Under the pieces are notes generated by a model that was given only the letters and a program-made list of their open reading frames with translations, was not told where the DNA came from and searched no databases. This document shows, in pieces, positions 8,709-61,698 of a stretch of 64,000 nucleotides of DNA. A program made the translations under genes and the position numbers. Positions within the stretch are counted from its first letter, which is position 1; the number at the start of each line of letters is the position of its first letter. Source of the stretch: Phycisphaerales bacterium (GTDB taxonomy: Bacteria > Planctomycetota > Phycisphaerae > Phycisphaerales > UBA1924). The stretch lies in contig OZ245804.1 in NCBI GenBank assembly GCA_965228265.1, positions 207,298-271,297 of the forward strand. Direction: 5' to 3'.

Positions 8709-8750
8709 TACCCCCCGAAGGACTCGAACCTTCAACCCGCTGATTAAGAG
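8709..8750 (-). repeat. Direct repeat DR1: 42-bp copy of the 3' half (anticodon loop to discriminator) of tRNA-Lys(CTT) - left att site
   Basis: Sequence ta ccccccgaag gactcgaacc ttcaacccgc tgattaagag at 8709-8750 is identical to 47929-47970 inside the intact tRNA-Lys gene. Confidence 0.85.
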
Positions 8751-16811: not shown

Positions 16812-16836
16812 TGTAGCGTAGCTACTGTTTTAGAAC

Positions 16837-18992: not shown

Positions 18993-19002
18993 ATGGCCCA
19001 TC

Positions 19003-29387: not shown

Positions 29388-30877
29388 CGGCCTTGTCCCC
29401 GTCCTTGATCACGAAGCGTGCTTCGAGGCGTGCAATCTCGGTCGCGAGATCTGCTTCCTCGACGGAGCGCAGCACCTCGTCGAAGTCCTTGTACGCCGCG
29501 GGAGCCTCATCGATCGGATAGTTCCGGCAATTCGTGAGGATGTCACGCTCCTTGAATGACGCGTCGATCGCGCCCTGGTCGAGCGCCTTGGCGGCGGCTC
29601 GGCGACCGAGCGCTCGGCCTGCGCCGTGATTCACGCTGTAGCACGACTTGACGGCACCCTCGTTTGCGACCATGACGGACGAGCCCGCCTGCGGATTGCC
29701 CGGGAGAAGAATGGGGTGGCCCGTCTTCTCGAATAGTGTGCCCTTGAGCGCGTGGTGGCCCCCGGGAAACGCGCGAGTCGCGCCCTTGCGGTGCACCCAG
29801 TGCGGCTTGTTGTCCAATATCTCCTGGCGCGCGATGTTATGGCTGATGAAATACACCAGGCGACCCGTCACGCCAGGCAGAACCTCCTGAAATGCTTCGA
29901 GCACGAGCGCGTTGATGAGAAGATGGTTCACGGTCGCGAAGTTGGCACCGAGCGCCATGTCGTCAAGGTAGGCATTGGCTTGGTCGCTCCCCAGCGGCGC
30001 GTGCACGAGCTGGCGATCGTTGCCCGGCAGCGGGATGCCCCAGGTCGCAAAGTGCTGCTCAAGTGACTTGAACTGACTTGACGCGAGATCGTGCCCGAGA
30101 CCGCGTGAGCCGCAGTGCGAGAGGAACGCCACGCCACCATCGCGGAGACCGAAGACTTCGGCAGCTTGGTGCGCACGCTCGCCCTCGCGGACGCGCACGA
30201 CCTCGCACTCGCCGAAGTGGTTGCCCCCGCCGTAGGAGCCGAGCTGGCGGATCTTGCCCGGGAGCTTGTTGCGGAATCGGCCCTCCTGCTTGAGGAATTC
30301 AAGGCGTGCAAGAAGGCCCTCGGTCGAGCCTTCGTGCGCGAAGTGGGCGCTGTCTTCGCAGCGGTCGGCCCATTCGGGCGGGATACCGAGTTCATTGCAC
30401 ACACCGGCGGACGCGCCCTCGGTAATCACGCGCTCGCCGATTGCGTCATCAACGAGACGCGACTTGGATGCATGGCGCTGGCCTCGGCCTGCGCCGGTAG
30501 GCGTGCGCTCGCAGATGGCATCAATGATCGCCCGGCGCGTGCGTACATCACGGACAGCGTCCTCGTCGATGTCGATCGCAAGAAGACTCATCGAACACTT
30601 GATGTCGACACCGACGGGGCCGGGGTAGATATGCGTTGGGCTTGCCATGACGCAGCCGACCGGGGTGCCGTAGCCCACGTGCGCGTCCGGGTTGAGCACA
30701 AGGTGCGACACACCCGGCGCGGTGGCGGAATTGATGGCCTGCTGGATGCACTGCTCGTCGAACGTCTCGCGGATAGCGGGAGTTCCGATGACGGTGACGG
30801 GCTTCTGGTTGGTCGGGAGCGGCAGCATCGCGGTAGCCTCGCCGGTCTCGATGAATGGATTTGTTGACTCGGACATG
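29380..30877 (-). CDS. rtcB: RNA-splicing ligase RtcB
   Basis: Motifs NPDAHVGYG, YGGGNHFGE, NHAGAGR. Start set at MSESTNPF (ATG 30877) because the longer ORF would run into the tRNA-His gene. Confidence 0.9.
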
Positions 30878-30935
30878 ATTGATCTCCGTACAGAGTGGAG
30901 TGCTACAGGAATGGAAATTGATGATACTGAACAAG

Positions 30936-31010
30936 GGTGAACGAAGGGGCTCGAACTCTCAACCCCCGGGCTCACAACCCGGTGCTCTGCCCAATTGAGC
31001 TACGCTCACC
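30936..31010 (-). tRNA. tRNA-His (anticodon GTG) with encoded G-1
   Basis: Folded by hand: G-1, acceptor GTGAGCG/CGTTCAC, D arm GCTCAATTGGGCAGAGC, anticodon arm CCGGG-TTGTGAG-CCCGG, T loop TTCGAGC, discriminator C. Confidence 0.8.
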
Positions 31011-31022
31011 ATCGCAACGAAA

Positions 31023-31098
31023 CAGCCTCGGCAGGACTCGAACCTGCGACCCCCGCATTCGTAGTGCGGCGCTCTGATTCCGACTGAGCTACGAGGCT
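31023..31098 (-). tRNA. tRNA-Arg (anticodon ACG)
   Basis: Acceptor AGCCTCG/CGAGGCT, anticodon arm CCGCA-CTACGAA-TGCGG, T arm GCAGG-TTCGAGT-CCTGC. Confidence 0.8.
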
Positions 31099-31115
31099 TC
31101 GAACTTGTTTGTCAA

Positions 31116-31189
31116 TCTGGGTGAGAGGACTCGAACCTCTGGCCTCGTGCTTCCAAGGCACGCGCTCTGCCAAGCTGAGCTACACCCAG
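31116..31189 (-). tRNA. tRNA-Pro (anticodon TGG)
   Basis: C1:G72 acceptor CTGGGTG/CACCCAG, D arm GCTCAGCTTGGCAGAGC, anticodon arm CGTGC-CTTGGAA-GCACG, T arm AGAGG-TTCGAGT-CCTCT, discriminator A. Confidence 0.8.
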
Positions 31190-31215
31190 TCGATTGCTTT
31201 CGTTCACGAATCGAA

Positions 31216-31289
31216 TAGCTCCGGCAGGAGTCGAACCTGCAACGAACGGTTTCTAAGACCGCCGCCTCTACCAATTGGGCTACGGAGCC
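31216..31289 (-). tRNA. Atypical tRNA: anticodon UAG (nominally Leu) but class-I (5-nt variable loop) architecture
   Basis: Acceptor GGCTCCG/CGGAGCT (G1-U72 wobble), weak D stem, anticodon arm GCGGT-CTTAGAA-ACCGT, T arm GCAGG-TTCGACT-CCTGC. No long variable arm. Confidence 0.5.
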
Positions 31290-31334
31290 GAGTCTTTGAA
31301 TCGTGACCGCACGCTTTCGCGCGGGGTCACGGGG

Positions 31335-32666
31335 TTAGGGGTTTGCGTTGGCCTGCTTCTGGCGGATCAGCGAGCCGATCTGCTCGGACAGGTCGCCCGA
31401 GCCGAGCACGAAGGTTGCGTTGGCTCCCTTCATGATCTCCTGCAGCGCCTCGAGTTCCTTCATGCGAGCGAGCACGGGGTTCTCCGCGAGCAGCTTGGCG
31501 GTGTTCGCCTGGCTGCGCGCGGCCGCGGTCTCCTCGCGACGACGGATGAGGTTGGCCTCGGCCTGCTTCTGGGCGATGATGACCTCGTTGAGGATGGTCT
31601 TCATGTCGCCCGGCAGGATGAGGTCCCGCAGGCCGACACCGGAAACAGCGACACCGAATGCGTTTGCCTTCGGCGAGATCGTGTTGGCGATCTCGGAAGA
31701 TACCTCGTCCTTGTCGGCGAGGAGCCTCTCGAGGGTCCGCCCCCCCACCGCGGTGCGGAGCGCGAGCTGCGCCTCGCGGTAGAGCGCCTGCTTCCACTCG
31801 GTGACCTCCGTCACCGCCTTGAGCGGATCGATCACACGGAAGGTCACCACGAGGTTGACCCGCAGCGAGACCTTGTCCGAGGTCAGGATCTCCTGACCCT
31901 GGATGTCCTCGATCTGCTCGCGCAGATCCACGGACTTCCAGGTGATGTTCGAGCCGCCCTTCCAGTAGACGTAGAGACCTGCGCCGACCTGGTCGATGAG
32001 CTCGCCATCACGGAAGATCAGGACGGTCTCGTGCGATTCGGCCCTGATGCCGGTGAAGGCGTTTGCCGAACCCGGCAGAAGAAGGACGGGCTCGATCTTT
32101 GGGTGATCGAAGCGGACATCGTTGACGGTGTACCGCTCGACCTTGATCGAGACGCCCTCGTTCCAGTAGGCGTGGATGCCCTTGGCGAGGACGGCGTTCA
32201 GGCGGCCGTCCACCCAAACGAGCGCACGCTCATCATCCTTAAGGTCGATTACTGTGAGTCTCGACGCGAGTCGCTCGTCCTCGATGAGAGTGCGGAGCCT
32301 TGCGTGCGTGAATCTCGGCTCGCAGATGTCGATGACCTCGACGTTGGCCGAGCCCGCCCAGAAGGCGTGACGCCCCTCATCGATAACTTCCTCGAGACAA
32401 TTGTCCACCCACACGAGCGCGATCTCGCGCTTGCGGAGGTTGATGACCTCGAGCAGATCCGACAACAGGTGGTTCTGAGTCAACGCCTTGAGCTGGTCGT
32501 GTTCGAACCTTGGCATGAGAGTGTCGACCACTTCGATGCGGTCCCTGGATGACCAGGGCCAGACGCGAGGCAGACGACGCACGCCATGACCGACGACCTT
32601 GTAGAGGTCGTTATGACGGAACCAAAGCCCGAGTTCGTTGTTTCTGATGCGGTATGTGTTCCACAT
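31335..32666 (-). CDS. SPFH/band-7 (slipin-like) protein with N-terminal repeat region
   Basis: C-terminal SPFH domain ...ILTSDKVSLRVNLVVTFRVIDPLKAV...QALYREAQLALRTAVGGRTLERLLADKDEVS...AQKQAEANLIRRRE. N-terminus has about three ~60-aa repeats (ALVWVD...HAFWAG / HAYWNEG). Start at MWNTYRIR (32666). Confidence 0.7.
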   Translation of the reverse strand: MWNTYRIRNNELGLWFRHNDLYKVVGHGVRRLPRVWPWSSRDRIEVVDTLMPRFEHDQLKALTQNHLLSDLLEVINLRKREIALVWVDNCLEEVIDEGRHAFWAGSANVEVIDICEPRFTHARLRTLIEDERLASRLTVIDLKDDERALVWVDGRLNAVLAKGIHAYWNEGVSIKVERYTVNDVRFDHPKIEPVLLLPGSANAFTGIRAESHETVLIFRDGELIDQVGAGLYVYWKGGSNITWKSVDLREQIEDIQGQEILTSDKVSLRVNLVVTFRVIDPLKAVTEVTEWKQALYREAQLALRTAVGGRTLERLLADKDEVSSEIANTISPKANAFGVAVSGVGLRDLILPGDMKTILNEVIIAQKQAEANLIRRREETAAARSQANTAKLLAENPVLARMKELEALQEIMKGANATFVLGSGDLSEQIGSLIRQKQANANP

Positions 32667-33032
32667 GGGACGGCTCCTTTCTTTGAAGCTCAAGGGGATT
32701 GAAACGAAACGGAAACGTTTGTTGAAATGCGAGCAGAGAGGTCCTTCCGAGCCAGCGCCCCGGTTGGCGGCGGGGATCGGCTTGAGAACCGGCAGTGAGC
32801 GTGCGGCAGACGGAACTCGGGAGCGATCCGCACGCCTCCTTCGGGAGACGATCTGGAACGCCCGGTCGTGCCGGGCCGCGTTGCTTTGTCGGTTCGGTAT
32901 CCGCGGATCCGCGAGCCGCGTCGCGGGTGCCTGGCCGTCGATGCGTCGGCGCTGGGCGCCTTGCATCGCACGGGTCGGCTGCGCTCGGGTGGATGGCTAC
33001 CCCTCGACTCGCTCATGTGCTTGCCCTTAACC

Positions 33033-33082
33033 GGAGCGAGCGGGGGGAGTCGAACCCCAGTCTTTTTGAAGACTTACCAGTT
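33033..33082 (-). pseudogene. tRNA 3'-half remnant (T arm TGGGG-TTCGACT-CCCCC + acceptor CGCTCGC), no 5' half
   Basis: Canonical T loop and acceptor 3' strand, but no matching 5' acceptor or D arm upstream. Confidence 0.4.
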
Positions 33083-33155
33083 GTAACGAGACCGGATTTG
33101 AACCGGCTACCGTCGAGTTCTCAACTCGATGCTCTACCAAATGAGCTACTCGTGA
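33083..33155 (-). tRNA. tRNA-like gene, anticodon GAG, class-I architecture with C2-U71 mismatch (possible pseudo-tRNA)
   Basis: D arm GCTCATTTGGTAGAGC, anticodon arm TCGAG-TTGAGAA-CTCGA, T arm GCCGG-TTCAAAT-CCGGT, acceptor TCACGAG/CTCGTTA. Confidence 0.4.
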
Positions 33156-33240
33156 TGCTTTGCCCCGCCGACAGAACCCTGAGTCGCGAGACACGGGGCG
33201 CCGATCGGCACCGCGTCGCAGGACGACGGGGCGCCACAAA

Positions 33241-33313
33241 TGGATGCCGAGGGAATCGAACCCTTTCCCGGCGGGGGACAAATCTCCCCGCCGGGGCCGC
33301 CTGGCAGCGATCC
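33241..33313 (-). other. tRNA-like element with canonical T arm (GGGTTCGATTCCC) but over-long anticodon-region stem and 2 acceptor mismatches
   Basis: GGATCGC...CGGCGGGGAGATTTGTCCCCCGCCG...AGGGTTCGATTCCCTCGGCATCCA. Confidence 0.3.
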
Positions 33314-33521
33314 GTACATGAACGTGTGCAAACCCCGGGTTGTCAGAGAGGCGAGGAGCCGTGCGGCTCGACATGACATATGCAGAAAGCGTGCCAGTTC
33401 GAAGAGACATTCAAAATATGCCCTGATGGCGCCAGAACGCCGTTTTAAAGATTCATGTACAAATGATGCTTGGCAAAGTATGATCTGCCCATATCGCTTT
33501 TGATATATATGGATCATCTCT

Positions 33522-35138
33522 ATGCCCAACCCGAAATCGCCACCTCGCAAAAAAACCGTCGTCATCGGCATCCTCGGAACCACCCTCGATGCGGGCAAGG
33601 GGGCCAAGCGATGGGAACGCTGGCGGCCCACCGTCTCGCTCTGCCAACACGAGGACCTGCTCGTCGACAGACTCGATCTGCTGCATGACAGACGGTCAAC
33701 ATCTCTTGCCAACACGATCATCGAAGACATCGCCAGTGTGTCTCCCGAGACAAAGGTTGTTGAGCACGACGTCGAGATGCTCGATCCGTGGGACTTTGAG
33801 GAGGTCTACGGCCTACTTCACGAGTTTGCTTCGGGCTATCCCTTTGACACAGAGCTTGAGGAATACCTCGTTCATATCACGACCGGCTCACACGTGGCGC
33901 AGATCTGTAACTTTCTACTCACGGAGGCACGGTACTTCCCCGCGAGGCTCATTCAGTCGAGCCCGGCGCGCAAAGCAGAAGAACGGGCCGGCAACTACAG
34001 CATTATCGATCTGGATCTCTCGAAGTACGACCGTCTCGCGTCACGCTTTGAGCGCGAGCACACGGACGCCATCGCCTCACTGAAAGGAGGCATCGCGACC
34101 CGCAACCCCGCGTTTAACAGCCTGATCGAGAGGATCGAGCACGTTTCCGCCCGCACCACCGACCCGCTCCTGATCACAGGGCCCACCGGCGCCGGGAAAT
34201 CACGGCTCGCAGGGAGGATCTTTGAGCTCCGCAGGCACCGTCGACTCGTGGAAGGGAAGCTCGTTGAGGTCAACTGCGCCACATTGCGAGGCGACGGCGC
34301 GATGTCGACACTCTTTGGACACAAGAAAGGAGCCTTCACGGGCGCCATGGCCGATCGTCCCGGGCTTCTCCGCTCGGCGGACGGTGGGATGCTGTTTCTC
34401 GATGAGATCGGTGAACTCGGGCTCGACGAGCAAGCGATGCTTTTACGCGCGATCGAAGAGAAGCGGTTTCTCCCTCTCGGGGCCGACACGGAGGTACGGA
34501 GTGATTTCCAGCTCATCGCGGGCACGAACCGCGACCTGGGCGCCCGGGTGCACGAGGGGCTCTTCCGTGAGGACCTGCTCGCACGGATCAACCTCTGGAC
34601 GTTCTGTCTGCCGAGCCTTCGCGAACGGCCCGAGGACATCGAACCGAACCTTGAGTTCGAACTCGAGCGTTTCGCACGGGAACGTGGCCGACTCATCCGG
34701 TTCAGCGCCGAGGCGAGAGAGCGATTCCTAGCCTTTGCGATCCGATCCGATTCGAGCTGGAAGGGTAACTTCCGCGATCTCGGTGCGGCACTCACGCGGA
34801 TGGCGACGCTCGCGCCCGGGGGGAGGATATCGAGCGATATCGTCGACGAAGAGATATCAAGGCTCAGAATTCAATGGCAGAGCCATGAATCGCAATCCGA
34901 TGACGCGGAGCTTCTGGGTTACTTTGATGCCGATCGGCTTGCCGAGATCGACTTGTTCGACAGGGTGCAGCTCGCTGCGGTGCTCCGGGTGTGCCGGGAT
35001 TCGGCCTCGCTCTCAGACGCGGGGCGTAAGCTCTTTGGAGCCTCGAGAGAGAAACGCTCAACGGTCAACGACTCCGATCGTGTCCGGAAGTACTTGGCGA
35101 AGTTTCGGCTGAGCTGGGACCGGTTGCACGGTACCTGA
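33522..35138 (+). CDS. rtcR: Sigma-54-dependent transcriptional regulator RtcR (N-terminal CARF, AAA+ sigma54-activator domain, C-terminal HTH)
   Basis: Walker A ITGPTGAGKS. Sigma54-activator GAFTGA motif (GHKKGAFTGAMADRPGLL). Arg-finger region LFREDLLARINLW. RtcR-type CARF N-domain. Confidence 0.85.
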   Translation: MPNPKSPPRKKTVVIGILGTTLDAGKGAKRWERWRPTVSLCQHEDLLVDRLDLLHDRRSTSLANTIIEDIASVSPETKVVEHDVEMLDPWDFEEVYGLLHEFASGYPFDTELEEYLVHITTGSHVAQICNFLLTEARYFPARLIQSSPARKAEERAGNYSIIDLDLSKYDRLASRFEREHTDAIASLKGGIATRNPAFNSLIERIEHVSARTTDPLLITGPTGAGKSRLAGRIFELRRHRRLVEGKLVEVNCATLRGDGAMSTLFGHKKGAFTGAMADRPGLLRSADGGMLFLDEIGELGLDEQAMLLRAIEEKRFLPLGADTEVRSDFQLIAGTNRDLGARVHEGLFREDLLARINLWTFCLPSLRERPEDIEPNLEFELERFARERGRLIRFSAEARERFLAFAIRSDSSWKGNFRDLGAALTRMATLAPGGRISSDIVDEEISRLRIQWQSHESQSDDAELLGYFDADRLAEIDLFDRVQLAAVLRVCRDSASLSDAGRKLFGASREKRSTVNDSDRVRKYLAKFRLSWDRLHGT

Positions 35139-37896: not shown

Positions 37897-38285
37897 GTCG
37901 AGTGTTCATATTGGCTATTCTCCCACCCTTCCCACCTGCAACATGCCAATACTAATGCAAGGGGCTTCGCCAGCTGAGATGCTCATGCCTGGTCGCATAC
38001 GCCCAGTCAATGCACCTGTGTGACTCACGGGCTAACCTAGCAGAACGTTGCATCTCGGCACGTATTGATACCTGATCCATACCCGTGACATGGGGCTTGA
38101 TCCAGTTCTCGGCACGGATACCGAGAATGGCTCCACTGAGCACCAACACCATCAACTGCAGCTTCCTGTTCATCTCGTGCTCCTTTCTTTCGGGGGATTC
38201 AGGCCCCATGAGCACAAGCGAGACCGGGCGGAGTCAGCTGCCACGTTCTAGATCATCTGAATCCTGGCCGAGTTATGATCCAGCC

Positions 38286-38867
38286 ATGGACGACCCATCA
38301 GCCGCGATCACCCTCCTGCTCGCCAATCAGCACGACTCACCCGATGCGGCCAAGGAACTCCTGCCTCTCGTATACGAACAGCTCCGCAGGTCCGCCCAGC
38401 TCGCCCTGCTCGACGAGGCCTCCGGGCACACACTTGAGCCCACTGCGCTCGTCCATGAGGCATACGTTAAGCTCGCGGGCCCGCGTGAAATTCCATGGGC
38501 CAACCGGGGGCACTACTACGCCGCGGCAGCTCAGGCGATGCGACGGATCCTGATCGACCACGCCCGCTCCAAGGGTGCCCGCATGGCCCGGGAAGCCGCG
38601 ATCAAAGGGCTCTCCGATGTGGCTTCGCTGGCTCGCCAGGAACCTGGCACAATCCTGGCAGTCGACGAGGCTCTGTCTCGCTTGGAGGTTGAGGACCCCG
38701 AGGCGGCCGCCATTGTTCGGCTGCGTTTCTTTGCGGGCCTCAGCGTGGAACAGGCGGCGCTGGCGATGGGGACCTCCCCGCGCACCGCGGCCCGCCTCTG
38801 GTCGCTCGCCCGCGCCAGGCTCCACGTCTTCCTGACCCAGCCGGGCGCCGGAGAGGCCAATGACTGA
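38286..38867 (+). CDS. Planctomycete-type ECF sigma factor (Sigma70_ECF family)
   Basis: LLPLVYEQLRRSAQL... region 2 and IVRLRFFAGLSVEQAALAMGTSPRTAARLWSLARARL region 4. Overlaps the kinase start. Confidence 0.75.
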   Translation: MDDPSAAITLLLANQHDSPDAAKELLPLVYEQLRRSAQLALLDEASGHTLEPTALVHEAYVKLAGPREIPWANRGHYYAAAAQAMRRILIDHARSKGARMAREAAIKGLSDVASLARQEPGTILAVDEALSRLEVEDPEAAAIVRLRFFAGLSVEQAALAMGTSPRTAARLWSLARARLHVFLTQPGAGEAND

Positions 38868-41800
38868 CCACATTGCTAAGCGTGCCCGCGAAATCTACTT
38901 GCAGCTCTCGACACTCGACCAGAGCGCCCTAGAAGCCGAGCTGGATCGCCTGTCTGGTGGCGACGCGAAACTTAAGGACGCGGTCGTCAGCCTAATCGAC
39001 GCCCAAGCGCACGCTGACCAAGACGACTTCATGTCGAGCCCCACCGCCGGCACGACCGCAATGAGTGCAACCATCACCGAGTCCGCGGGCTCGGCCATCG
39101 GCCCATACAAACTCCTGCAGCTCATCGGCGAGGGCGGCTTCGGTTCAGTCTTCCTTGCCGAGCAGGCGAGACCCGTTCGCAGACGTGCCGCGCTCAAGAT
39201 CATCAAGCTGGGTATGGACACCAAGCAGGTCATCGCCCGCTTCGAGGCCGAGCGCCAGGCGCTGGCGATGATGGACCACCCGCACATCGCGCGGGTCTAT
39301 GACGCCGGCGCAACGGATACAGGCCGCCCTTACTTTGCGATGGAATACGTCGTTGGCGACGCGATCACCAAGTTCGCCGACGCCCACAAACTCGACATCC
39401 CATCGCGTCTGGCGCTCTTTGCGCAGGCCTGCTCTGCTGTCCAGCACGCGCACACCAAGGGCGTCATCCACCGAGACCTCAAGCCCGCAAACGTGCTCGT
39501 CAGCATGGTCGACGGCAAGCCGTACGCCAAGGTCATTGACTTCGGCATCGCGAAGGCCACCGCCTCGCCGCTCACCGAGAAAACGCTCTTCACCGAGCAC
39601 CGCCAGCTCATCGGCACGCCCGAGTACATGAGCCCCGAGCAGGCCGAGGGCTCGCCCGACATCGACACACGCACCGACGTGTACGCGCTGGGCGTCTTGC
39701 TCTATGAGCTCCTGACGGGCGTGACGCCCTTCGACGCCAAACGCTTGCGCTCGGCCGCGTTCGGGGAGATGCAGCGCATCATCAAGGAAGAAGACCCCCC
39801 CGCTCCCAGCCTGCGCCTGACACGCAACCTCGAAAGCCTCGCCAAGACTGCGATGGACCGCAAGGTTGAGCCGACTAAGCTCAGCAACGCCGTGCGCGGC
39901 GAGCTGGACTGGATCGTCATGAAATCTCTCGACAAGGACCGGGCCCGGCGGTACGAGAGCGCCGCCCAGCTGGCGACAGACATCGGCAACCACCTGGCGG
40001 GCGATGCAGTCGTCGCCGCACCGCCGAGCCGGGGGTATCGGTTGCGGAAGTTTGTGCGCCGGAATAGGGGGGCGGTGATCGCGGGGAGCGCCGTGTCCGC
40101 GGCAATCCTGCTTGGGCTGGCTGGTACGGCTTGGGGATGGAACGCGGCCAGGCAGTCGAACAAGGATCTCTCACAGAATCTCTCCATTGCGCGTGAATCT
40201 CTTCTGAGCAGCATCGTTCAGACCGTTGAGTTTGACGAAGGAGAGCGACTAGCGCTGATGGATGAGATGGGGATCACTGAGAGCCAGGCGCGGCGTGAGC
40301 AAGCCAATGCTTTTGTCGAAGGTATCCGCCAAGCTCGCAAGCATCTTGCCGCAGAAGAAGGCCGCACTGTCGATCCCACAGAACTCAATGACATCGCAAT
40401 GCTCTCATTTGTTTCCACCATGAGCGTCGAAGAGATCGTCAAGCTGCGCGACAAGCTGCGAAACCAGGCCGACATCGCCCGCAACGGCTTGGACGAGATG
40501 AGCCGGATTCTCAACGATTACGATCCCCAGGAATCGCCGCAAGTCGGCGAGGTCGCCCTATCCACATGGAACTCCCACAACAGCGACCAATTCCCAGGCG
40601 AATCCCCGGACGAACTCAGGCTCCGGGCACTCATGGCGTATGCGACAGGCAATGCGAAGAAGCTCGTTGCAGAATCTAATCGATCAAGCCGAATAGCCCA
40701 GGCCGTAGCCATGATGGGCGATGTCCAGAATGAGTACGTTGCCAATATGTACAGCAGTTACAGCGGTAACCTTGCGGACGGTTCTGAGAAATCGAGTTTG
40801 CAATATCTTATGGAGGCTCTAGATGAAGGCCTGCTCGCCGACGCACCGGAAGCCGAGTTTCCGATCCGTTCCGCGCTCAGTTCGCTCCTGGAAACCTCAA
40901 CGAAATCGGACGCGATCGACTTTTGCCTGAAATCACTCCAGAAGGCCGAGCAACGACTGGGATCCGAGCATCCGATCTCGATCAGATTGCTGGTGAACCT
41001 CGTCAGGATGCATGACCAGAACTCTGCAAAGAAAGACGAGACGATTCTCGCCGAGGCACGAAGCTGGTACGGGCACCTCCGCCAGCGGCTCCACGCGGTT
41101 CGAGGCGACCTCCCCGAGCACGACACGCGCCAATGGGCCAGCGAGCTTATTTCATACAGCTCGCAGTACGACGATACCAACTGGACGGCAGCGATGGTGC
41201 TCGGCGAACCCGACGCGTTCAGCTACACGGACCATGAAGGCGCGTGGACGCCTGTAGCGAGCAGCAGGAAATTCGAGCACGTGACCGTTGGATTCGAACA
41301 GCCCGTCTTCGCGACGGGTGTCATGGTGCGACAGGTTCTCAATAACGGGTTCGTCAGGCTGATCGAAGTAATCGATCTGGGCGGCGAGCTGCACCCCGTA
41401 TGGGCGGGTGAAGATACGAGCGAGAGAGGTATGCCTTACGACTTCGTCGCACGGTTCGAACGCACACCATTTGCAGTTCAAGGAGTGCGCGTCACCATCG
41501 ACGCAAATCACGCGTCGACCTATGAAGAAGTCGACGCGATCGAGCTCATCGGCTTTGCCGTACGCCCCGACGAGATCCAGGCCGATCCGGAGGTCAGAGC
41601 CCTTGCAAGCACGCGTCATGAACAGGCCATGCGACTCGTCGGCCCCATCGTGCAGGAAGCCCTCGCCAACGCTCCCACACTGAAAGAAGCCGAGCAACGC
41701 GTAATGAACGCGCCCGATCTAGATACCGCCGAGCGAAACAAAGTCGCCTTGGCTTTCTCCAAGGCGAGCATGGAGGTTCGCGATCTGGCACGCACGCAGG

Positions 41801-42372
41801 GTGAGCAGTTCGTAGCCCAGTGCCTCACCCTCGACCGCAGCATTGCCAAACTCGATCGCACAGATGGTCTCACGCCCATCATGCGTGACGAAATCAGAAA
41901 GGAGCTCCAAACGCTTGCCCAGAACTCGATCTACGCGATCAACGAGCGGATCTGGAGAACTGTACACGTCCCGGGGGCTTCTAAAGAAACACTCGCCATC
42001 GCCCTCGAAGAGGCGCTCAAACTCACCGAGGCATACCCGGATTCCCCCAACTATCGATTTACACTCGGAGCCACGCAGTACAGACTCGGTGAATTCGAAA
42101 GTGCCCTTGCCTCGCTCACCGAATCACGCCGGTTGTACGGCAGCCGCGTGCTCACCTTGGATCACCTATTCCTGGCTATGGTCTACGCCAAACTCGGAAG
42201 AGACCAGGAGGCTCTCGATATCTTCCTGAACTGGGACATCGATCTTCGCTCGACAGATACAAACACCGAGAACGGCCGTATCTACACCGAGACGCTCGAA
42301 GTACTCGGACCAATCCTCAGGAACGCCGGCATCGACGCCTCCGAGCCGATCGCCCAGCCCCCCACACCCTGA
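38860..42372 (+). CDS. Hanks-type serine/threonine protein kinase with single TM segment and large C-terminal extracytoplasmic region
   Basis: GEGGFGSV, ALKIIK, HRDLKPANVL, DFGIAK, GTPEYMSPE. TM segment AVIAGSAVSAAILLGLAGTAWGW. About 750-aa C-terminal region. Confidence 0.85.
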   Translation: MTDHIAKRAREIYLQLSTLDQSALEAELDRLSGGDAKLKDAVVSLIDAQAHADQDDFMSSPTAGTTAMSATITESAGSAIGPYKLLQLIGEGGFGSVFLAEQARPVRRRAALKIIKLGMDTKQVIARFEAERQALAMMDHPHIARVYDAGATDTGRPYFAMEYVVGDAITKFADAHKLDIPSRLALFAQACSAVQHAHTKGVIHRDLKPANVLVSMVDGKPYAKVIDFGIAKATASPLTEKTLFTEHRQLIGTPEYMSPEQAEGSPDIDTRTDVYALGVLLYELLTGVTPFDAKRLRSAAFGEMQRIIKEEDPPAPSLRLTRNLESLAKTAMDRKVEPTKLSNAVRGELDWIVMKSLDKDRARRYESAAQLATDIGNHLAGDAVVAAPPSRGYRLRKFVRRNRGAVIAGSAVSAAILLGLAGTAWGWNAARQSNKDLSQNLSIARESLLSSIVQTVEFDEGERLALMDEMGITESQARREQANAFVEGIRQARKHLAAEEGRTVDPTELNDIAMLSFVSTMSVEEIVKLRDKLRNQADIARNGLDEMSRILNDYDPQESPQVGEVALSTWNSHNSDQFPGESPDELRLRALMAYATGNAKKLVAESNRSSRIAQAVAMMGDVQNEYVANMYSSYSGNLADGSEKSSLQYLMEALDEGLLADAPEAEFPIRSALSSLLETSTKSDAIDFCLKSLQKAEQRLGSEHPISIRLLVNLVRMHDQNSAKKDETILAEARSWYGHLRQRLHAVRGDLPEHDTRQWASELISYSSQYDDTNWTAAMVLGEPDAFSYTDHEGAWTPVASSRKFEHVTVGFEQPVFATGVMVRQVLNNGFVRLIEVIDLGGELHPVWAGEDTSERGMPYDFVARFERTPFAVQGVRVTIDANHASTYEEVDAIELIGFAVRPDEIQADPEVRALASTRHEQAMRLVGPIVQEALANAPTLKEAEQRVMNAPDLDTAERNKVALAFSKASMEVRDLARTQGEQFVAQCLTLDRSIAKLDRTDGLTPIMRDEIRKELQTLAQNSIYAINERIWRTVHVPGASKETLAIALEEALKLTEAYPDSPNYRFTLGATQYRLGEFESALASLTESRRLYGSRVLTLDHLFLAMVYAKLGRDQEALDIFLNWDIDLRSTDTNTENGRIYTETLEVLGPILRNAGIDASEPIAQPPTP

Positions 42373-42416: not shown

Positions 42417-42716
42417 TCAGACACCAGGCTTGCCGTCGTGTTCAGGCTGCTCGAGGTCCACGAAACGGAGATCATTCAGCACGAGGACATCGGCATCGCC
42501 GGCAAAGTCTCGATGTAGATAGAAGGCCAACTGCCGCTCGGCCTCGATGCCGGCTCGGAGTTTCGGATCGGACGGGAGCGTGCTCGACTGAGATGGCTTC
42601 ACGATCATGTCCTTGCTCCTGCTCTGCGGCATGACTGGGGGCATTTCGCATTCATTAGAACCATGGCCACGCACAATGGAGACGAGCACGACATCCAGCA
42701 TGGTCTGTACGATCAC
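42417..42716 (-). pseudogene. Truncated NERD-domain gene (N-terminal ~75 aa only), paralogue of 8992-10068
   Basis: MIVKPSQSSTLPSDPKLRAGIEAERQLAFYLHRDFAGDADVLVLNDLRFVDLEQPEHDGKPGV. Ends where the kinase gene stops. Confidence 0.6.
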
Positions 42717-44261
42717 CTCGTGAGCCTGGCCCTCCAGGAACGACTATATTTGTATAATATCCTCGCCTCACTGAATACACCGAGCTCGATGCTGGGGAGG
42801 CCCACTCGGCTATTGCCCAGTATGTGGAGCGTCTACTGGCCGACTCGCTGTCGACACTCCGGGGCAAGGACTCCGCCGATAGGCAGCGTCGTCTCGTGGA
42901 CCAGCTCATCGGGACGCTCATCGCTGAGCTGGGTGACGATTGGGCAGACCGGTTCAATCTGGCTAGCCCAGTTCGTCGGCTGCTCGCGATGCACGCTGAG
43001 CCTCAGAAGCATCCGGCAACGCGCCCATATACGCTCTTGGCCCGTTCCGCATTGCTCACCGGTACGCGGCTTGATCCATCGCTGGCGTCGCAGCTTGCGA
43101 AAGAGTTTGCTAGTGCAGACCGGGTCGACATTCTGTGCTCATTCATCAAATGGAGCGGCATCCGCCTGCTGATGGACGCGATCCGCGAACTCACAGCCAC
43201 GCCTCATCCGGACGGCCCGCGACTTCGCGTCATCTCCACGAGTTACATTGGCGCGACGGATGCAAAGGCGATCGAAGTAATCCGCGACTTGCCGAACACC
43301 CAGGTCAAAATGTCCTACGACACCGAACGGACCCGCCTACACGCGAAGTCCTATGTAGTCCACCGCAACACTGGTTTCGGCAGCGCCTACATCGGTTCGG
43401 CCAACCTATCACGAGCAGCACTGTCCGAGGGCCTCGAATGGACCAGCAAGATAAGCCAGTACGAGTTGCCTCACCTGTGGCAGACAATCGTCGCTACCTT
43501 TGAGACCTACTGGAATGACGACGAGTTTGAAAGCTTTGATGGTGCCGCCTTACCCAAGCTCCGCGAGGCGCTCGATCGCGAACGCACACGCGGCTCTATT
43601 GATATTGGGGATCTCCCAACATTTGACCTCCGCCCCTACCCATTTCAGGAAGAGATCTTGGACGCAATGGCCGCCGAGCGGGAGGTGCAAGGGAAGCATC
43701 GCTACCTCATCGTAGCCGCGACGGGGACCGGCAAGACGATGATCGCCGCGTTCGACTACAAGCGATGGGCCGGCGGCCGGAAGCCGTCTCTGCTCTTTAT
43801 CGTCCACCGCGAAGAGATCCTCCGACAAGCTCTTGGTATGTACAGGGCCGTGCTTCGCGACCATAACTTCGGCGATGTACTCGTCGGGGGCAGCATCCCC
43901 GAGCAACGCGACCACCTGTTCTGCTCCATCCTGAGCAACAACCGCCGCAGCCTTCATGAACTCCCACCAGGCCAATTCGATGACATCGTGGTAGACGAGT
44001 TTCACCACGCCGCGGCTCAGAGCTACCGTCGACTTCTGGACATCGTGCAGCCGAAGATCCTGCTTGGGCTCACCGCGACCCCAGAACGCGCTGACGGCCT
44101 TGATGTCCTTGCCTTGTGGCGGCGAGCCAGCCGCCGAGGTCCGCTTATCCGCCGCGATCAGCCGACGACTGCTCTGCCCGTTCCAGTATTTCGGGGTCGC
44201 TGACAACGTCGACCTCGATGGGTTGACCTGGCAGCGCGGCGGCTACCGGATCGAAGACTGA
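42663..44261 (+). pseudogene. Decayed paralogue (~88% aa identity) of the PLD/helicase/DUF3427 gene; internal deletion, frameshift and truncation
   Basis: Frames 42663 and 42824 together reconstruct the N-terminus, PLD domain and helicase motifs I-III. A frameshift near 44100 and a stop at 44261 (...GGYRIED*) come just before the IS remnant. Confidence 0.7.
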
Positions 44262-44328: not shown

Positions 44329-44760
44329 ATGGCGAGGAACCGGTATTCGGCTGAGGAGACAGTCAACATTCTGCGGCAGGCTGAGGTCGAGCTGCCCAAG
44401 GGCTCGACGGTGGCCCAGGCGTGCAAGCAGATCGGGGTGGCTGATCAGACGTATTACAAGTGGTGACGCGAGTACGGCGGGCTCAAGACCGATCAGGCGA
44501 AGCGATTCAAGCAGCTCGAGCAGGAGAACGCGCGGCTGAAGATGCTGGTCGCGGACCTTTCGCTGGATAAGGCGATGCTGCAGGATGTCGCCCGGGGAAA
44601 CTATATAAGCCCGCGCAAGACGCGTCGGGCGGTCGGCGCGCTGCACGCCCGAGCCCCCGCCGCGCTCGGCCTCCGGGCTCGACGTATCCACGACCTACCT
44701 CGGCTCGCTGGGCTGAGGACCCGTGCTCCTTGGTGTCAGGGATGACACCTGCCCCGGCCG
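44329..44760 (+). mobile_element. IS3-family transposase OrfA remnant with in-frame TGA, truncated before OrfB
   Basis: MARNRYSAEETVNILRQAEVELPKGSTVAQACKQIGVADQTYYKW*REYGGLKTDQAKRFKQLEQENARLKMLVADLSLDKAMLQDVARGNY. HTH plus leucine zipper typical of IS3 OrfA. Confidence 0.65.
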
Positions 44761-45003
44761 GTCCTGCCATCTGGATCGGCCGGGGATCTAGTATCTGTCA
44801 CATTTCAGTGGCATTTGGGTCATTCTAAACCACAAGATGGTGCCCGCAGGCACTTAAGGGATCCAAACCTTACACATACCCGCCAAAGGTGCAAATCACA
44901 TCGTTACTGAACTGACTTACAACAATGCCGGGGTATTGCCCCGATACGCATAGATTCCAGTAGAATTACGGCGACACAGATCCAGATACGGACCGCCCTC
45001 GCC

Positions 45004-46131
45004 ATGGCTTTTGATGCTCAACTCATTGCTCACCGCCCCAGAGAAACCGCTGGGTCCCTAAGCGCAAATCGATTTGAGTTTCAACTCAATTGGGCGATTT
45101 GTCACTTGATTAAACTTCACAGAACTATAGACGAGTATGTCGTACTCATTGATTATCACGAGGACATAGTCGTTCTTAATGCGGAAACAAACCCGACGAG
45201 TGCAGAGTTTTTCCAGATCAAATCGAAGACGACGGGAAACTGGACAACGAAACAACTAATTAAACAGGAAAAGGGAAATTCTGGCAAGAAACTTTCAATT
45301 CTTGGAAAACTGTATCATTCGTATACTTTGTGGCCGAATTGCACTGCCGGACTCTACTTTGTCAGCAACGCACCACTCAAAGCAAAGGATCAAAAATCCC
45401 AAAGCACCATAAAACTTGCTACGATTCCTTTTTCTGCGCTTCTAAAGTCAGAGCAAGATGAGATCGTTAATTCTATCAACACAGAGCACAGCACGCAGGA
45501 CGCATCAACAGGCCTCAAGCTATTCACCTACAAGAAATGCAATCTCACCCCTAGCGGCCAGGCGGAAATGGCAATAGGAGTTGTAGCCAATTTTCTTGAA
45601 TCCATTCAGGGAGGCCAAACACTACCTGCACCGGCTTTCTACAGAGCACTCAAAGACGAGCTCCAGAGGAGATTTCGCACAGAGCAGATCCCAATTTCCT
45701 ACAATGAACTACGTGAGTTTAAGGGACTATCTGGATCACATTTTGCCAAGATGATCGAGGTTGCTGTTGCCGAGCCGTTGCGGCAAGACTTAGCAACGTT
45801 GATTGGCGGTCGCCTGAACAGTGAGGACGTGCCCTTCGCAGAAGTAAACCGGATTCGCAACGAGGTAAGTAAGATCCAGTTGAAATTGCTTGATAGTTCA
45901 AACCTGTTCATCACCGACTCCCTCTCGGTAGTCCGAGGTGTAGTCACTCAAGTGAAAAGACACTCCAGACTTTGGGACACCATTGAGGAAACCGCATCAC
46001 ATCCTGGCTTAAAAACACTTAAAAGGACATTGTCACACGATGTCGTTCGTGCTATGATAGGGATTTGTCTGCATGAGTCAAATGACACACTACCGGCTCC
46101 TGATCCGGATGCTCAGGAGAAAGCAACATGA
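45004..46131 (+). CDS. Lamassu LmuA-like protein (DUF4297/Cap4-type PD-(D/E)xK nuclease N-domain)
   Basis: N-terminal FEFQLNWAICHLIKLH...DEYVVLIDYHEDIVVLN...FFQIKSK (E...D...E.D...QxK pattern). AT-rich gene (~45% GC) in a ~67% GC genome. Confidence 0.55.
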   Translation: MAFDAQLIAHRPRETAGSLSANRFEFQLNWAICHLIKLHRTIDEYVVLIDYHEDIVVLNAETNPTSAEFFQIKSKTTGNWTTKQLIKQEKGNSGKKLSILGKLYHSYTLWPNCTAGLYFVSNAPLKAKDQKSQSTIKLATIPFSALLKSEQDEIVNSINTEHSTQDASTGLKLFTYKKCNLTPSGQAEMAIGVVANFLESIQGGQTLPAPAFYRALKDELQRRFRTEQIPISYNELREFKGLSGSHFAKMIEVAVAEPLRQDLATLIGGRLNSEDVPFAEVNRIRNEVSKIQLKLLDSSNLFITDSLSVVRGVVTQVKRHSRLWDTIEETASHPGLKTLKRTLSHDVVRAMIGICLHESNDTLPAPDPDAQEKAT

Positions 46132-47843
46132 AACGATTGCGATTCGACGAACTCATTCTCTTCTCACAGAAGGAAAGGAGCGCAAGAAGGCTCAGCCTCC
46201 ATCCGACCGCAACGGTAATCAAGGGCGACAATGACACTGGCAAATCTTCGCTGGTGAAATCGCTTTATTGGGCCCTCGGTGCCAAACCTCCAGTCATTCC
46301 TCCAAACTGGGAACAATCTGGAGTTGTCACCTCATTACGCTTTCGTGTGAGTGATGTTCAATACCGCGTGATACGTAATGGCGACCGATTTAGTTTCTTT
46401 GACGGCGACGACCAACTGATCGAATCCTTCGTGAGTATCACTCATGGTGTGAGTCCATTCATTGCAAAGTTGTTTGACTTTCGCTTGCAGCTACCGGGCA
46501 AAAGTGCAAGAGCAGAAACGCAAGCAACGCCTGCCTTCTTGTTCTTGCCGTTCTACATCGATCAGGATTCGGGATGGGGCAATGAGTGGCTTCGGTCCTT
46601 CTCCAGGCTGCAGCAGTTTCGATTCAGACGTGAAGATGTACTGAGGTTCCACTTTGGAATCAGACCATCGGATTACTATCTTGCAAAAATTCGGCTTGCC
46701 GAAATTGTGAGCAAGGCGAACGAGGTGCGACGTGAACGAGAGATTCTCGACGGCCTTTTGGAGGATCTGCACAAGGAACTCCGGGAAGTTGATTTTACTG
46801 TCGACATTGATTTCTTCAAGGAAGAAGTTACCCAACTCCTAGAACGTTCCAACCGGCTACAGCAGGAGGAAGAACAGCTACGCGATCGAATGGCGATCGC
46901 ATATGGCGATTTGTCAGCAGTGCGTGACCAATTACGCATCACGAAACACGCGCTAGCGGAACTTCAAGCCGACCGGAAGTTTGCGAGTGAGCTAGAGGGT
47001 GACTCAGTTCAATGCCCAACGTGTCATGCGGAGTATGCGAACGATTTTGCCGAGCGATTCTCGATCGCGGTGGACGAAGATCGTTGCCTCGGACTACTCA
47101 GTGAACTCGACCAGCAGAAACGCAAGGCGGAGGAAGCTTACCAGTCAGCTATGCAAATGACGTCCAGCCTTCGCGCGGAATCCGAAGAAGTAGAGGCCCT
47201 GCTGAGATCAAAGAAAGAGAACTTGGTTTTACACGATGTGATCAAGAGTGAAGGCCGACGAGAGATGCTTGGGCTGCTTCGTCGGCAACTGTCTGCACTT
47301 CATGAGCAACTCGGGGTACTCGATTCCAGAGAAGCCGAAACACGCAAGAAGATGAAGGAATACGACGACCCCAAGCGAAAGAAAGAGATCGTTGGCTACT
47401 ACAATAATCAAGCAGCGCGAATGCTCGATAAGCTTGACGTGAAAAACGTTCATGCTTCGGCATATAAATCGCTTGGAGCGCCGATTAAGGATTCTGGCAG
47501 CGACGTATCACGGGCGGTGCTCGCATTCGTTTTGGCTAGCCTCCGGACAATCGACAAATATTCTAAATGCGCTATGTGCCCACTCGTGATCGACTCGCCA
47601 AGACAGCATGATCAAGATGACCATAGCTTCAAGTTAATCCGCGAAGCAATCCGAGACGAGCGTCCGGATCAGTGCCAGTTAATCCTCGCGCTTACCGACG
47701 ATGAAGGAACGGACTTTGGCGGCGAAATTGTTGAGTTGGATAGGAAGCGGAAGGTGCTTGACACCGAAGAGTTCGCTGAGGTGTCAGAGGAAATTCGTCC
47801 TCTAATCGAGCGGTCCCTCATGTCTAACGAAGATGAAGATTAG
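46128..47843 (+). CDS. Lamassu LmuB-like SMC/Rad50-like ABC ATPase (DUF3732-type)
   Basis: Walker A GDNDTGKSSL, long coiled coil with a central CPTCH (CxxC hook-like), C-terminal LVIDSPRQHDQDD Walker B/D-loop-like. ATGA overlap with the upstream gene. Confidence 0.6.
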   Translation: MKRLRFDELILFSQKERSARRLSLHPTATVIKGDNDTGKSSLVKSLYWALGAKPPVIPPNWEQSGVVTSLRFRVSDVQYRVIRNGDRFSFFDGDDQLIESFVSITHGVSPFIAKLFDFRLQLPGKSARAETQATPAFLFLPFYIDQDSGWGNEWLRSFSRLQQFRFRREDVLRFHFGIRPSDYYLAKIRLAEIVSKANEVRREREILDGLLEDLHKELREVDFTVDIDFFKEEVTQLLERSNRLQQEEEQLRDRMAIAYGDLSAVRDQLRITKHALAELQADRKFASELEGDSVQCPTCHAEYANDFAERFSIAVDEDRCLGLLSELDQQKRKAEEAYQSAMQMTSSLRAESEEVEALLRSKKENLVLHDVIKSEGRREMLGLLRRQLSALHEQLGVLDSREAETRKKMKEYDDPKRKKEIVGYYNNQAARMLDKLDVKNVHASAYKSLGAPIKDSGSDVSRAVLAFVLASLRTIDKYSKCAMCPLVIDSPRQHDQDDHSFKLIREAIRDERPDQCQLILALTDDEGTDFGGEIVELDRKRKVLDTEEFAEVSEEIRPLIERSLMSNEDED

Positions 47844-47928
47844 AGCCGCTAACGAGTGGGGTGCCGTGACACAATCCGTTGGACCGGCGTTGGACAGTGC
47901 CTCGCAGTCCGGTAAAACCTTCTGAAAA

Positions 47929-48001
<73 letters not shown>

Positions 48002-48281
48002 ATTCCGGGGCCTCTCGGCCGCGGAGCGGACCGATCGTAGGTCGCTCTCGTCAAAGGGTCCACATACACCAGCCAAGCCGATTTTGGCTCGCTTGGGATT
48101 GGAATCCAGACACCCATCTGTTCGCATCCCGATCGGGTTTCGCGGGCTTGTGGTCCGTTGACCTATCTAGCCGCCCGCGCTAGTGTTGGGGCCCTCTGAA
48201 GAGGCCGATCCTCGGCCGAGAAGGGGCAACCGCTGCAGCCAAACCCGGGCCAGGGGCCCGTGTCAGAATCGAGGATCCATC

Positions 48282-60330: not shown

Positions 60331-61698
60331 ATGCCCAAACTCACCGACACAGGCCTGTACTTTCTTGCGTGGCTCGCCGCTGCTGGGGCCCTGCCGACCA
60401 TGGGCCAGATCCTCAACGAGGACCGCAAACTCATCGCGTCTGATGGGGTGCTCTTTGACCTCTTCGGTCATTCCATCGCCATCGACGGCGGGATCGTTGC
60501 GGTCGGTGCCTCCCAGAATGATGACTATGGCTTTTCTTCGGGGGCGGCATATCTCTTCGATGCCACCACGGGCAGCGAACTCCACAAGCTCCTTCCGGAC
60601 GATGGAGCCGCGGACGATAACTTCGGCATTTCGATCGGCATCGACGGCGGCATCGTCGTCGTCGGGACATTCATCGCCGTTTCTGGCGCCGTGAACCCGT
60701 ACGCGGCGTATCTCTTTGATGCAAATACCGGAGCACAGCTCCACAAGCTCCTCCCGGAGGACGGCCAGACTGGGAGACTCTTCGGCTTCGCCGTGGCGAT
60801 CGACAGCGGCGTCGTTGTCGTGGGTGCGTGGGGAGACTCAAGCACGCTCCCTCAACAGGGTTCGGCCTATCTCTTCGACGCGGCTACGGGTGAGCAACTC
60901 TTCAAACTCAAACCCGGCACCGAGAGCGGCGGGGATAACTTCGGCTTCGCCGTCGACATCGATGACGGGATTGTCGCCATCGGGGCATACCGGGACGATG
61001 ATCTCGGCTTTGATGCTGGTGCTGCGTATCTTTTCGATGCCGTCACGGGCAGCTTGCTCTACAAGCTTCTCCCCGACGACGGGGCCGCGGGCGATGAGTT
61101 CGGGCGCTCCATCGCCATCGACAACGGCGTTGTTGCTGTTGGCGCAATTCGAGACGACGACGACGGCACGGACTCCGGGTCGGTCTATCTCTTCGATGCC
61201 GCAACAGGCACACAGCTATGGAAGCTCCTCGCTGACGATGGCGCGGAGTTCAAGCATCTGGGGTATTCCGTCGCTATCAATCACGGCACCGTTGCCGCGG
61301 GCGCCTGGATCTCGAATGATAACGGCAGCGGTTCAGGTTCGGCGTATCTGTTCGATGCCGCTGCCGGCACGCAGCTCGCCAAGCTGCTCCCGAGCGATGG
61401 AACGACAGATGAGCGTTTCGGCACGTCCGTCGCCGTTGGTGGTGATTTGGCTACGGTCGGTGCTTACTTCGGCAACACCGTTCACGGCAGCCAGACCGGT
61501 TCTGCGTTCGTCTTTACCGCCCCAGCAGCACCCTGCATCGCCGATGTGAATGGCGACGGTGTACTGTCACCTGCCGACTTCTCCGCCTGGGTCGCCGCGT
61601 TCAATGCCGGCACGCCCGCGTGCGATCAGAACGGCGACGGTTCTTGCACGCCGGCTGACTTCTCCGCCTGGGTCGCCAACTACAACGCCGGATGCTGA
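60331..61698 (+). CDS. FG-GAP repeat (integrin-alpha-like beta-propeller) protein with two C-terminal DxNGDG dockerin/EF-hand-like repeats
   Basis: Seven or more repeats FG.S[IV]AIDGG.VVVGA....D.....G.AYLFDA.TG.QL.KL. C-terminal DVNGDGVLSPADFSAWVAAFNAG / DQNGDGSCTPADFSAWVANYNAG. Confidence 0.7.
   Translation: MPKLTDTGLYFLAWLAAAGALPTMGQILNEDRKLIASDGVLFDLFGHSIAIDGGIVAVGASQNDDYGFSSGAAYLFDATTGSELHKLLPDDGAADDNFGISIGIDGGIVVVGTFIAVSGAVNPYAAYLFDANTGAQLHKLLPEDGQTGRLFGFAVAIDSGVVVVGAWGDSSTLPQQGSAYLFDAATGEQLFKLKPGTESGGDNFGFAVDIDDGIVAIGAYRDDDLGFDAGAAYLFDAVTGSLLYKLLPDDGAAGDEFGRSIAIDNGVVAVGAIRDDDDGTDSGSVYLFDAATGTQLWKLLADDGAEFKHLGYSVAINHGTVAAGAWISNDNGSGSGSAYLFDAAAGTQLAKLLPSDGTTDERFGTSVAVGGDLATVGAYFGNTVHGSQTGSAFVFTAPAAPCIADVNGDGVLSPADFSAWVAAFNAGTPACDQNGDGSCTPADFSAWVANYNAGC

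Follow-up and report, generated by a model that had tools for sequence, protein, structure and literature searches.

What do the two AT-rich genes beside the tRNA-Lys gene of a Phycisphaerales bacterium encode, and how did they come to stand there? The genes, lmuA and lmuB, lie in a stretch of 64,000 nucleotides from contig OZ245804.1 (GenBank assembly GCA_965228265.1, positions 207,298 to 271,297), called the window below. The analysis established how the genes are arranged, which family they belong to, that their motifs are intact, what architecture is predicted for their products, that relatives share the two-gene layout, that the composition is foreign and that the setting is an island. 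The reading favoured here, with a probability of about 0.88, is that the pair is an intact type I Lamassu system (LmuA-LmuB, the LmuC-less "short clade S") directed against phages and plasmids, which was acquired horizontally and occupies a swappable slot at the end of an island. The same family had been proposed by an initial annotation made from the sequence alone, and the full-length family matches and the LmuC-less layout kept in relatives confirm it.

The borders of the cassette, 44788 and 47923, follow from a comparison with contig L003, a metagenome-assembled genome (MAG) of a sister strain. They agree almost exactly with the bounds of 44780-47928 first given. The cassette contains the following features:

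44788..45003, forward strand: cassette leader, 216 nt, non-coding, 49.5% GC, starting where the homology to L003 stops.
45004..46131, forward strand: lmuA, an open reading frame (ORF) of 375 amino acids; the effector, with an N-terminal Cap4-type PD-(D/E)xK double-stranded DNA (dsDNA) nuclease domain and a C-terminal helical domain.
46128..47843, forward strand: lmuB, an ORF of 571 amino acids; a Rad50/SMC-like ABC ATPase, by analogy the probable DNA-end sensor and scaffold.

The two genes overlap by 4 nt in an ATGA start/stop, and the tRNA-Lys(CTT) gene lies 84 nt past the lmuB stop codon. The leader is presumed to be the promoter region. Neither the leader nor the 84-nt trailer contains an ORF, promoter and terminator scans at the cassette performed no better than on shuffled sequence, and the Rfam scan returned tRNAs only.

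Both proteins match the Lamassu models of PADLOC. LmuA matches the LmuA model PDLC00238 at 8.4e-78 (residues 5-355 on model positions 7-360 of 365), and LmuB matches the LmuB model PDLC00249 at 3.4e-181 (residues 1-565 on positions 1-563 of 565). In Pfam, residues 16-223 of LmuA belong to Cap4_nuclease (PF14130, formerly DUF4297; 1.7e-35), and LmuB matches AAA_23. NCBIfam held no useful model for the cassette proteins; an archaeal SMC-related protein appeared only far under the cutoff. The initial annotation had named a different family assignment by hidden Markov models as what would overturn it; Septu and other families gave weak matches only. The motifs that it had quoted are all present: IDYHEDIVVLN...QIKSK (LmuA residues 49-75), GDNDTGKSS (LmuB 33-41), CPTCH (296-300) and LVIDSP (486-491).

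Two parts of LmuA can be told apart:

45151..45222, forward strand: nuclease active-site stretch, D50-x3-D54 ... Q71-I-K73, the D...QxK variant of PD-(D/E)xK.
45673..46080, forward strand: C-terminal helical domain, residues about 224-359; a helical bundle (H233-H358) in the AlphaFold2 (AF2) model.

Two alignments of LmuA relatives, with 62 and with 29 sequences, show no variation at G17, Q27, D54, Q71 and K73, and all five residues are kept here; the D...QxK nuclease triad is among them. The lysine equivalent to K73 (K59 in the Bacillus cellulasensis protein BcLmuA, K57 in VcLmuA of Vibrio cholerae) is the site of a published nuclease-dead mutation. The structural model of LmuA is one AF2 prediction built from an 8-sequence alignment, with a predicted local distance difference test score (pLDDT) of 83.9. 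It matches the fold of BcLmuA (9ux7_C) over 349 columns at an E-value of 4e-6, reaching through the C-terminal domain, and it also matches the HamA and Cap4 nuclease domains, with HamA 8zue_A at the top. A search of the PDB with the single LmuA sequence or with a 29-sequence profile returned nothing significant, so that BcLmuA was reached by the fold search only. The probable role of the C-terminal domain is taken from the literature on homologues.

LmuB carries the motifs of an ABC ATPase interrupted by a coiled coil. Conservation was scored over 36 relatives.

46224..46250, forward strand: Walker A, GDNDTGKSS, residues 33-41; N35, G38, K39 and S40 invariant.
46548..46568, forward strand: Q-loop region, PFYIDQD, residues 141-147; P141, F142, Y143, D145 and Q146 invariant.
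46668..47363, forward strand: antiparallel coiled coil, residues 181-288 outward and 307-412 back, from DSSP on the AF2 model.
47013..47024, forward strand: zinc-hook motif, C296-P-T-C299, at the apex of the coiled coil in a beta-hairpin of residues 293-304.
47490..47525, forward strand: ABC signature-motif region, DSGSDVSRAVLA, residues 455-466; G457 and S458 at least 90% conserved, R462 and L465 invariant.
47580..47618, forward strand: deviant Walker B and D-loop, PLVIDSPRQHDQD; D489-S490 replaces the canonical D-E, and P485, D489 and Q493 are invariant.

The Walker A, Q-loop, signature motif and Walker B aspartate are thus all intact. In published work, the Walker A mutations K37A (BcLmuB) and K40A (VcLmuB) abolish both ATPase activity and defence. 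The Walker B reads VIDSP; a "naturally deviant Walker B" is known from BcLmuB and VcLmuB, both of which still hydrolyse ATP.

In sequence searches, LmuB on its own matches BcLmuB (9ux7_A) at 2e-20; a 36-sequence profile matches it at 1e-45 and extends as far as archaeal Rad50 at 5e-6. The AF2 model (pLDDT 87.6) finds the same protein as its best fold match (9ux7_A, 2e-23), followed by type II LmuB and then by SMC and Rad50 proteins. Its elements run in the order N-terminal head, helices 181-220 and 227-288, beta-hairpin 293-304, helices 307-365 and 368-412, C-terminal head. The predicted breaks in the coiled coil, at about residues 221-226 and 366-367, match the kinks of BcLmuB at 210-225 and 351-357. 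Each of the hook residues C296, P297 and C299 is conserved in 90% of the relatives or more, and CPTC aligns with 285-CQYC-288 of BcLmuB. Judged from this alignment, the CxxC motif is a zinc hook, with zinc binding predicted. The likeness to the Rad50 hook that the initial annotation had pointed out therefore stands, but not its value as a new lead for the mechanism of LmuB, as the motif was described, mutated and catalogued in papers of 2023-2025.

The two-gene layout is shared by the relatives of the pair. Such relatives are encoded by 418 genomes in the GTDB species collection. Among the best 80 of these loci, an LmuA homologue stands directly upstream of LmuB in 76, and the other four have no upstream sequence; the gap between the genes ranges from -4 nt (16 loci) to about 60 nt. 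When the 952 neighbouring ORFs were clustered, no recurrent third gene was found, each family being confined to at most 6 of the 80 loci. Lamassu in its original two-gene form was reportedly first described in 2018. A lmuA-lmuB layout without LmuC characterises type I Lamassu, also called "clade S" of the short Lamassu, which has lost LmuC.

The closest known system is BcLmuAB from Bacillus cellulasensis (PDB 9ux7/9ux8; bioRxiv 10.1101/2025.06.23.660979), which has the same gene order and likewise no LmuC. Its LmuA also consists of a Cap4/DUF4297 nuclease and a helical C-terminal domain. Its LmuB has about 565 residues and likewise shows a Walker A, the D-S form of a deviant Walker B, a coiled coil that is short and kinked, and one CxxC hook, at the apex; in both sequence and fold it is the best match of the LmuB studied here. 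The two systems also differ. BcLmuA has 304 residues whereas LmuA has 375, the extra length falling in the C-terminal part. The window pair belongs to a PADLOC sub-model clade (PDLC00238/PDLC00249) other than that of BcLmuAB, and this clade has DSPxQQDQD after the Walker B where BcLmuB has DSFIKNE. The host is a member of the Planctomycetota here and of the Bacillota in the case of BcLmuAB.

The type II systems (Vibrio cholerae DdmABC, equivalent to VcLmuACB, and Salmonella enterica LmuACB; PDB 9uxh, 9nyg, 9hqu/9hqx) likewise sequester a Cap4-nuclease LmuA as a monomer on an LmuB dimer. They are activated in an ATP-dependent manner by the sensing of dsDNA ends, upon which LmuA forms a tetramer, and the same would be expected here by analogy. 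Type II LmuB matches the fold of LmuB at 1e-12 to 1e-16. Unlike the window pair, type II Lamassu requires LmuC; its LmuB is longer (about 630-660 residues) and has a second kink in one protomer, and VcLmuB lacks the CxxC hook that LmuB has here.

A more distant relationship is that to Rad50-Mre11/SbcCD, from which Lamassu is proposed to have evolved. Both have an ABC head, a coiled coil with antiparallel arms and a zinc hook of the CxxC type, and by analogy both recognise DNA ends; Rad50 matches the fold of LmuB at 1e-8 to 1e-10. In contrast to Rad50, LmuB has no Mre11/SbcD partner, its coiled coil is far shorter and its Walker B lacks the catalytic glutamate. Its partner would be a toxic Cap4 nuclease bound at the hook end, whereas the partner in Rad50-Mre11 sits at the heads.

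A mechanism for the pair can be outlined from the cryo-electron microscopy and biochemistry of BcLmuAB (bioRxiv 10.1101/2025.06.23.660979) and of the type II systems; the stoichiometry, the DNA-end trigger, the tetramer activation and the abortive outcome are all carried over from these homologues. Two LmuB protomers would pair via the zinc hook (CPTC) and the coiled coils. For every two LmuB, a single LmuA monomer would be docked by its helical C-terminal domain at the hook end of the coiled coils, an arrangement that would hold the Cap4-type nuclease domain in an inactive, monomeric state. Once an LmuB head has encountered a free end of dsDNA, for instance one arising from phage replication, ATP binding and hydrolysis (ATP/Mg) would lead to the release of LmuA. 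Freed LmuA would then form a tetramer via its C-terminal domains, with two nuclease domains making one active site. The active tetramer would degrade DNA indiscriminately, and the infection would be aborted. In the published systems, mutants of the hook, of the Walker A and of the nuclease have all lost defence. As far as can be judged from the sequence, no feature here argues against a mechanism of the BcLmuAB type. The longer C-terminal domain of LmuA and the invariant DSPxQQDQD suggest that this LmuAB clade may differ from BcLmuAB in ATP handling or docking.

The second half of the question concerns origin. The GC content of the cassette (44788-47927) is 49.1%, compared with 61.1% for the remaining island and 62.8% and 65.4% for the core flanks. 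The values are 46.0% for lmuA and 50.5% for lmuB, with a GC content at third codon positions (GC3) of 0.47 and 0.54 respectively; the GC3 of the adjoining plsX is 0.90. The cassette is the lowest-GC 3140-nt segment in the 64 kb, more than 5 standard deviations under the rest, the other segments of this length having a mean of 0.623, a standard deviation of 0.024 and a minimum of 0.581. The initial annotation, for which uniform GC content on recalculation would have spoken against foreign DNA, had described a drop from ~67% to ~45%. The anomaly is real and the step is sharp, but its size was somewhat overstated, mainly on the left.

The cassette stands at one end of an island. The two features that define the island are:

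47928-48002, reverse strand: tRNA-Lys (CTT), found by ARAGORN and by Rfam (67.9 bits); its 3' 42 nt (47929-47970) form the proximal att repeat.
8709..8750, forward strand: distal att repeat, a copy of the tRNA-Lys 3' 42 nt, marking the far end of the island.

The 42-bp direct repeat (8709-8750 and 47929-47970) is perfect, with 0 such repeats expected by chance. Four contigs of sister strains (96-98% DNA identity) join position 8750 straight to 47926. Because of the repeat and of these joined flanks, 8751-47928 is taken to be a 39.2-kb island inserted at tRNA-Lys. Border direct repeats and an empty site in relatives, by which tRNA islands are recognised, are thus found for the 39.2-kb island and not for the cassette alone, and no meaningful repeats were found flanking the cassette itself. 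The att site to which the initial annotation had tied the cassette is therefore genuine, but it bounds the 39-kb island instead of belonging to the cassette alone. With its partner lying 39 kb away, LmuAB is the tRNA-proximal module of a composite defence island. No integrase or recombinase domain was found in the scanned island ORFs of at least 120 amino acids, nor did tblastn with the integrases of related loci give a match, a test of little power where small fragments are concerned.

LmuA and LmuB each occur on a single contig among about 15 billion proteins. An identical PlsX, by comparison, occurs on 24 contigs, from marine metagenomes and from MAGs named Phycisphaerales bacterium; the four sister-strain contigs without the island are of this group. 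The nearest relatives have 54% identity for LmuB and 48% for LmuA, and the best genome matches are MAGs of Planctomycetota, at 40-48%. For the two closest relatives on long contigs (L007 and L088), the neighbours include integrases, a serine recombinase and a terminase; these cassettes likewise have a lower GC content than their flanks. A horizontal origin is concluded from the GC contrast, from the single contig of LmuA and LmuB against the 24 of PlsX, from the sister strains that lack the island, from the AbiE genes that one sister carries in the same slot, and from the distant relatives that lie near integrases and recombinases. The simplest reading is acquisition on a mobile element, probably within the phylum. 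The horizontal acquisition argued for in the initial annotation is upheld by the foreign composition and by the sister strains without the island.

Several points weigh against an intact and active type I system. The one type I system that has been studied biochemically shows low identity to the pair in structural alignment (LmuB 17%, LmuA 12%). As LmuA is about 70 residues longer than BcLmuA, the details of docking and tetramerisation may differ. Zinc binding is unresolved even in the published LmuB structures. No sigma-70-like promoter was found in the 216-nt leader, by a scan that is uncalibrated for Planctomycetota. Finally, the neighbourhood is decaying: the IS3 remnant has a stop codon, and a type IV restriction gene is both frameshifted and truncated. 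For this reason the cassette could be silent. This last point leads to the alternative that the pair is a non-functional relic, intact by chance and transcriptionally silent in a decaying island, for which the adjacent pseudogenes (the IS3 OrfA with its stop and the truncated, frameshifted second NERD/type IV restriction endonuclease copy), the missing promoter-like site upstream and the failure to find an integrase in the island can be cited. It is nevertheless improbable: measured by the family models, both ORFs have their full length, none of the residues that are invariant in the family is lost, the translationally coupled ATGA overlap is preserved, and 2.8 kb of open frame in AT-rich foreign DNA would be unlikely without selection.

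The remaining alternatives keep the pair functional and assign it elsewhere. It might be a type II, three-gene Lamassu (LmuA-LmuC-LmuB, DdmABC-like or ABC-3C) whose small LmuC was overlooked or is encoded at a distance, as LmuC is present in most short Lamassu clades and the next-best LmuB fold matches are type II structures (9uxh, 9hqx, 9nyg). The layout leaves no room for such a gene, with lmuA and lmuB overlapping by 4 nt, only 84 nt to the tRNA and an ORF-less leader of 216 nt; in the 80 related loci the gap between the genes is -4 to 60 nt and no third family recurs, and the best LmuB match in sequence and fold is the LmuC-less BcLmuAB. The type II assignment is therefore very improbable and largely refuted. 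Scarcely tenable is the idea of another nuclease-ATPase system (Septu PtuAB, Hachiman, a CBASS Cap4 effector, or a PARIS- or AbiE-like system) or of an SbcCD/Rad50-Mre11 repair pair. It draws on weak PADLOC matches to PtuA (1.4e-3), AriA (3.5e-4) and HamA (0.012), on HamA 8zue_A as the top LmuA fold match and on the reach of the LmuB profile to Rad50 at 5e-6. The PADLOC scores, which refute it, are weaker than those for Lamassu by ~75 (HamA against LmuA) to ~180 (PtuA and AriA against LmuB) orders of magnitude. No SAVED domain, CD-NTase, HamB helicase, HNH PtuB or Mre11/SbcD phosphoesterase was found beside the pair, and the short coiled coil (about 230 residues) and deviant Walker B are as in Lamassu. 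As to a CBASS Cap4 effector, only the nuclease domain of LmuA matches, its C-terminus being a helical bundle and not SAVED, and no cyclase was found among the neighbours of the cassette. Septu PtuAB was rejected as a separate candidate: its PtuA match (1.4e-3, 16 bits) covers 34 P-loop residues, and there is no HNH partner.

Besides LmuAB, the island contains NERD, type IV restriction endonuclease, McrBC, type I restriction-modification (R-M) and Rtc genes, an extracytoplasmic function (ECF) sigma factor with a kinase, and the IS3 remnant. A dense block of defence genes extends over 10048-27026. It includes a type IV methyl-directed restriction endonuclease (PLD-helicase-DUF3427; PADLOC 3e-237), McrBC (13351-16318) and the type I R-M genes hsdM, hsdS and hsdR. 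Between hsdS and hsdR lie two candidate defence genes, PDC-S21/DUF4917 (20217-21287) and HEC-07 (21254-22996), and next comes a YgjP-like metallopeptidase.

An RNA-repair module follows at 28368-35138, with RtcA and RtcB on the reverse strand and RtcR, a sigma-54 activator. Enclosed within the module are five tRNA genes (His, Arg, Pro, Leu-TAG and Leu-GAG) and an SPFH/Band-7 gene. A set of tRNAs beside Rtc repair could be a counter-measure to anticodon nucleases. At 38085-42372, with ~59% GC, a planctomycete-type ECF sigma factor gene (PF07638) overlaps the start of a gene for a Ser/Thr kinase of 1170 amino acids with TPR repeats. A second, degraded copy of the divergent NERD/type IV restriction endonuclease gene pair stands at 42418-44258, with 74% DNA identity to 9878-11721; it has a frameshift near 42824 and is cut short at 44203 by the IS3 remnant.

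Some features of the window lie outside the island. At 4197-6692, 2.5 kb encoding an ECF sigma factor, DoxX and a fatty-acid hydroxylase are unlike the sister strains, which carry DUF1569 and Anthrone_oxy genes there. Within this region, a 315-nt stretch (6223-6534) is 78% identical to the left end of the island (8732-9045). The similarity takes in the final 19 nt of the att repeat, and the stretch may be the scar of an older insertion. Self-comparison showed diverged tandem repeats at 60463-61400, with a period of about 159 nt and 65-73% identity, which probably lie in the gene of a repeat-domain protein.

Two further features lie to the left of the LmuAB cassette:

44329..44640, forward strand: IS3-family OrfA remnant (HTH_Tnp_1, 2.1e-15), with an in-frame stop, truncated near 44640.
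44636..44787, no strand assigned: GC-rich segment of 152 bp, the left anchor of the slot, ending in a hairpin with a 13-bp stem (44752-44785).

The IS3 remnant that the initial annotation had named is confirmed; it does not adjoin the cassette directly, the 152-bp segment standing between them. This segment is 96-97% identical to positions 1005-1158 of L003. It and the tRNA are the only two stretches that L003 shares with this region. Between them, where LmuAB stands here, L003 holds AbiEi/AbiEii (1159-3521; 52.7% GC).

The alternation of LmuAB and AbiE suggests the replacement of cassettes in a fixed slot. A stronger version of this idea is offered tentatively, as it is more doubtful than probable: the interval from the 152-bp segment to the tRNA-Lys 3' end may serve as a dedicated exchange slot, where unrelated low-GC defence cassettes of this Phycisphaerales population replace each other. 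Recombination at the two conserved anchors would bring the swap about, with no part played by the surrounding island, which has no integrase. A metagenome scan with the 36-nt junction hairpin gave no match, so that this version draws on a single sister contig. A different route, in which LmuAB would have been added in tandem at the tRNA as an element of its own, is unsupported, because no degenerate third copy of the att repeat was found at the left border of the cassette, either at up to 3 mismatches or by local alignment.

Lamassu as a family and type I as its two-gene form are already known, with structures, and so are the hook, the deviant Walker B, DNA-end sensing and tetramer activation; the locus is a divergent type I Lamassu that gives no sign of a new mechanism. 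Its value lies in its context, a bounded 39-kb defence island with the alternation of LmuAB and AbiE beside tRNA-Lys. It provides a clean natural example of the turnover of defence cassettes at a tRNA hotspot in an uncultured marine lineage.

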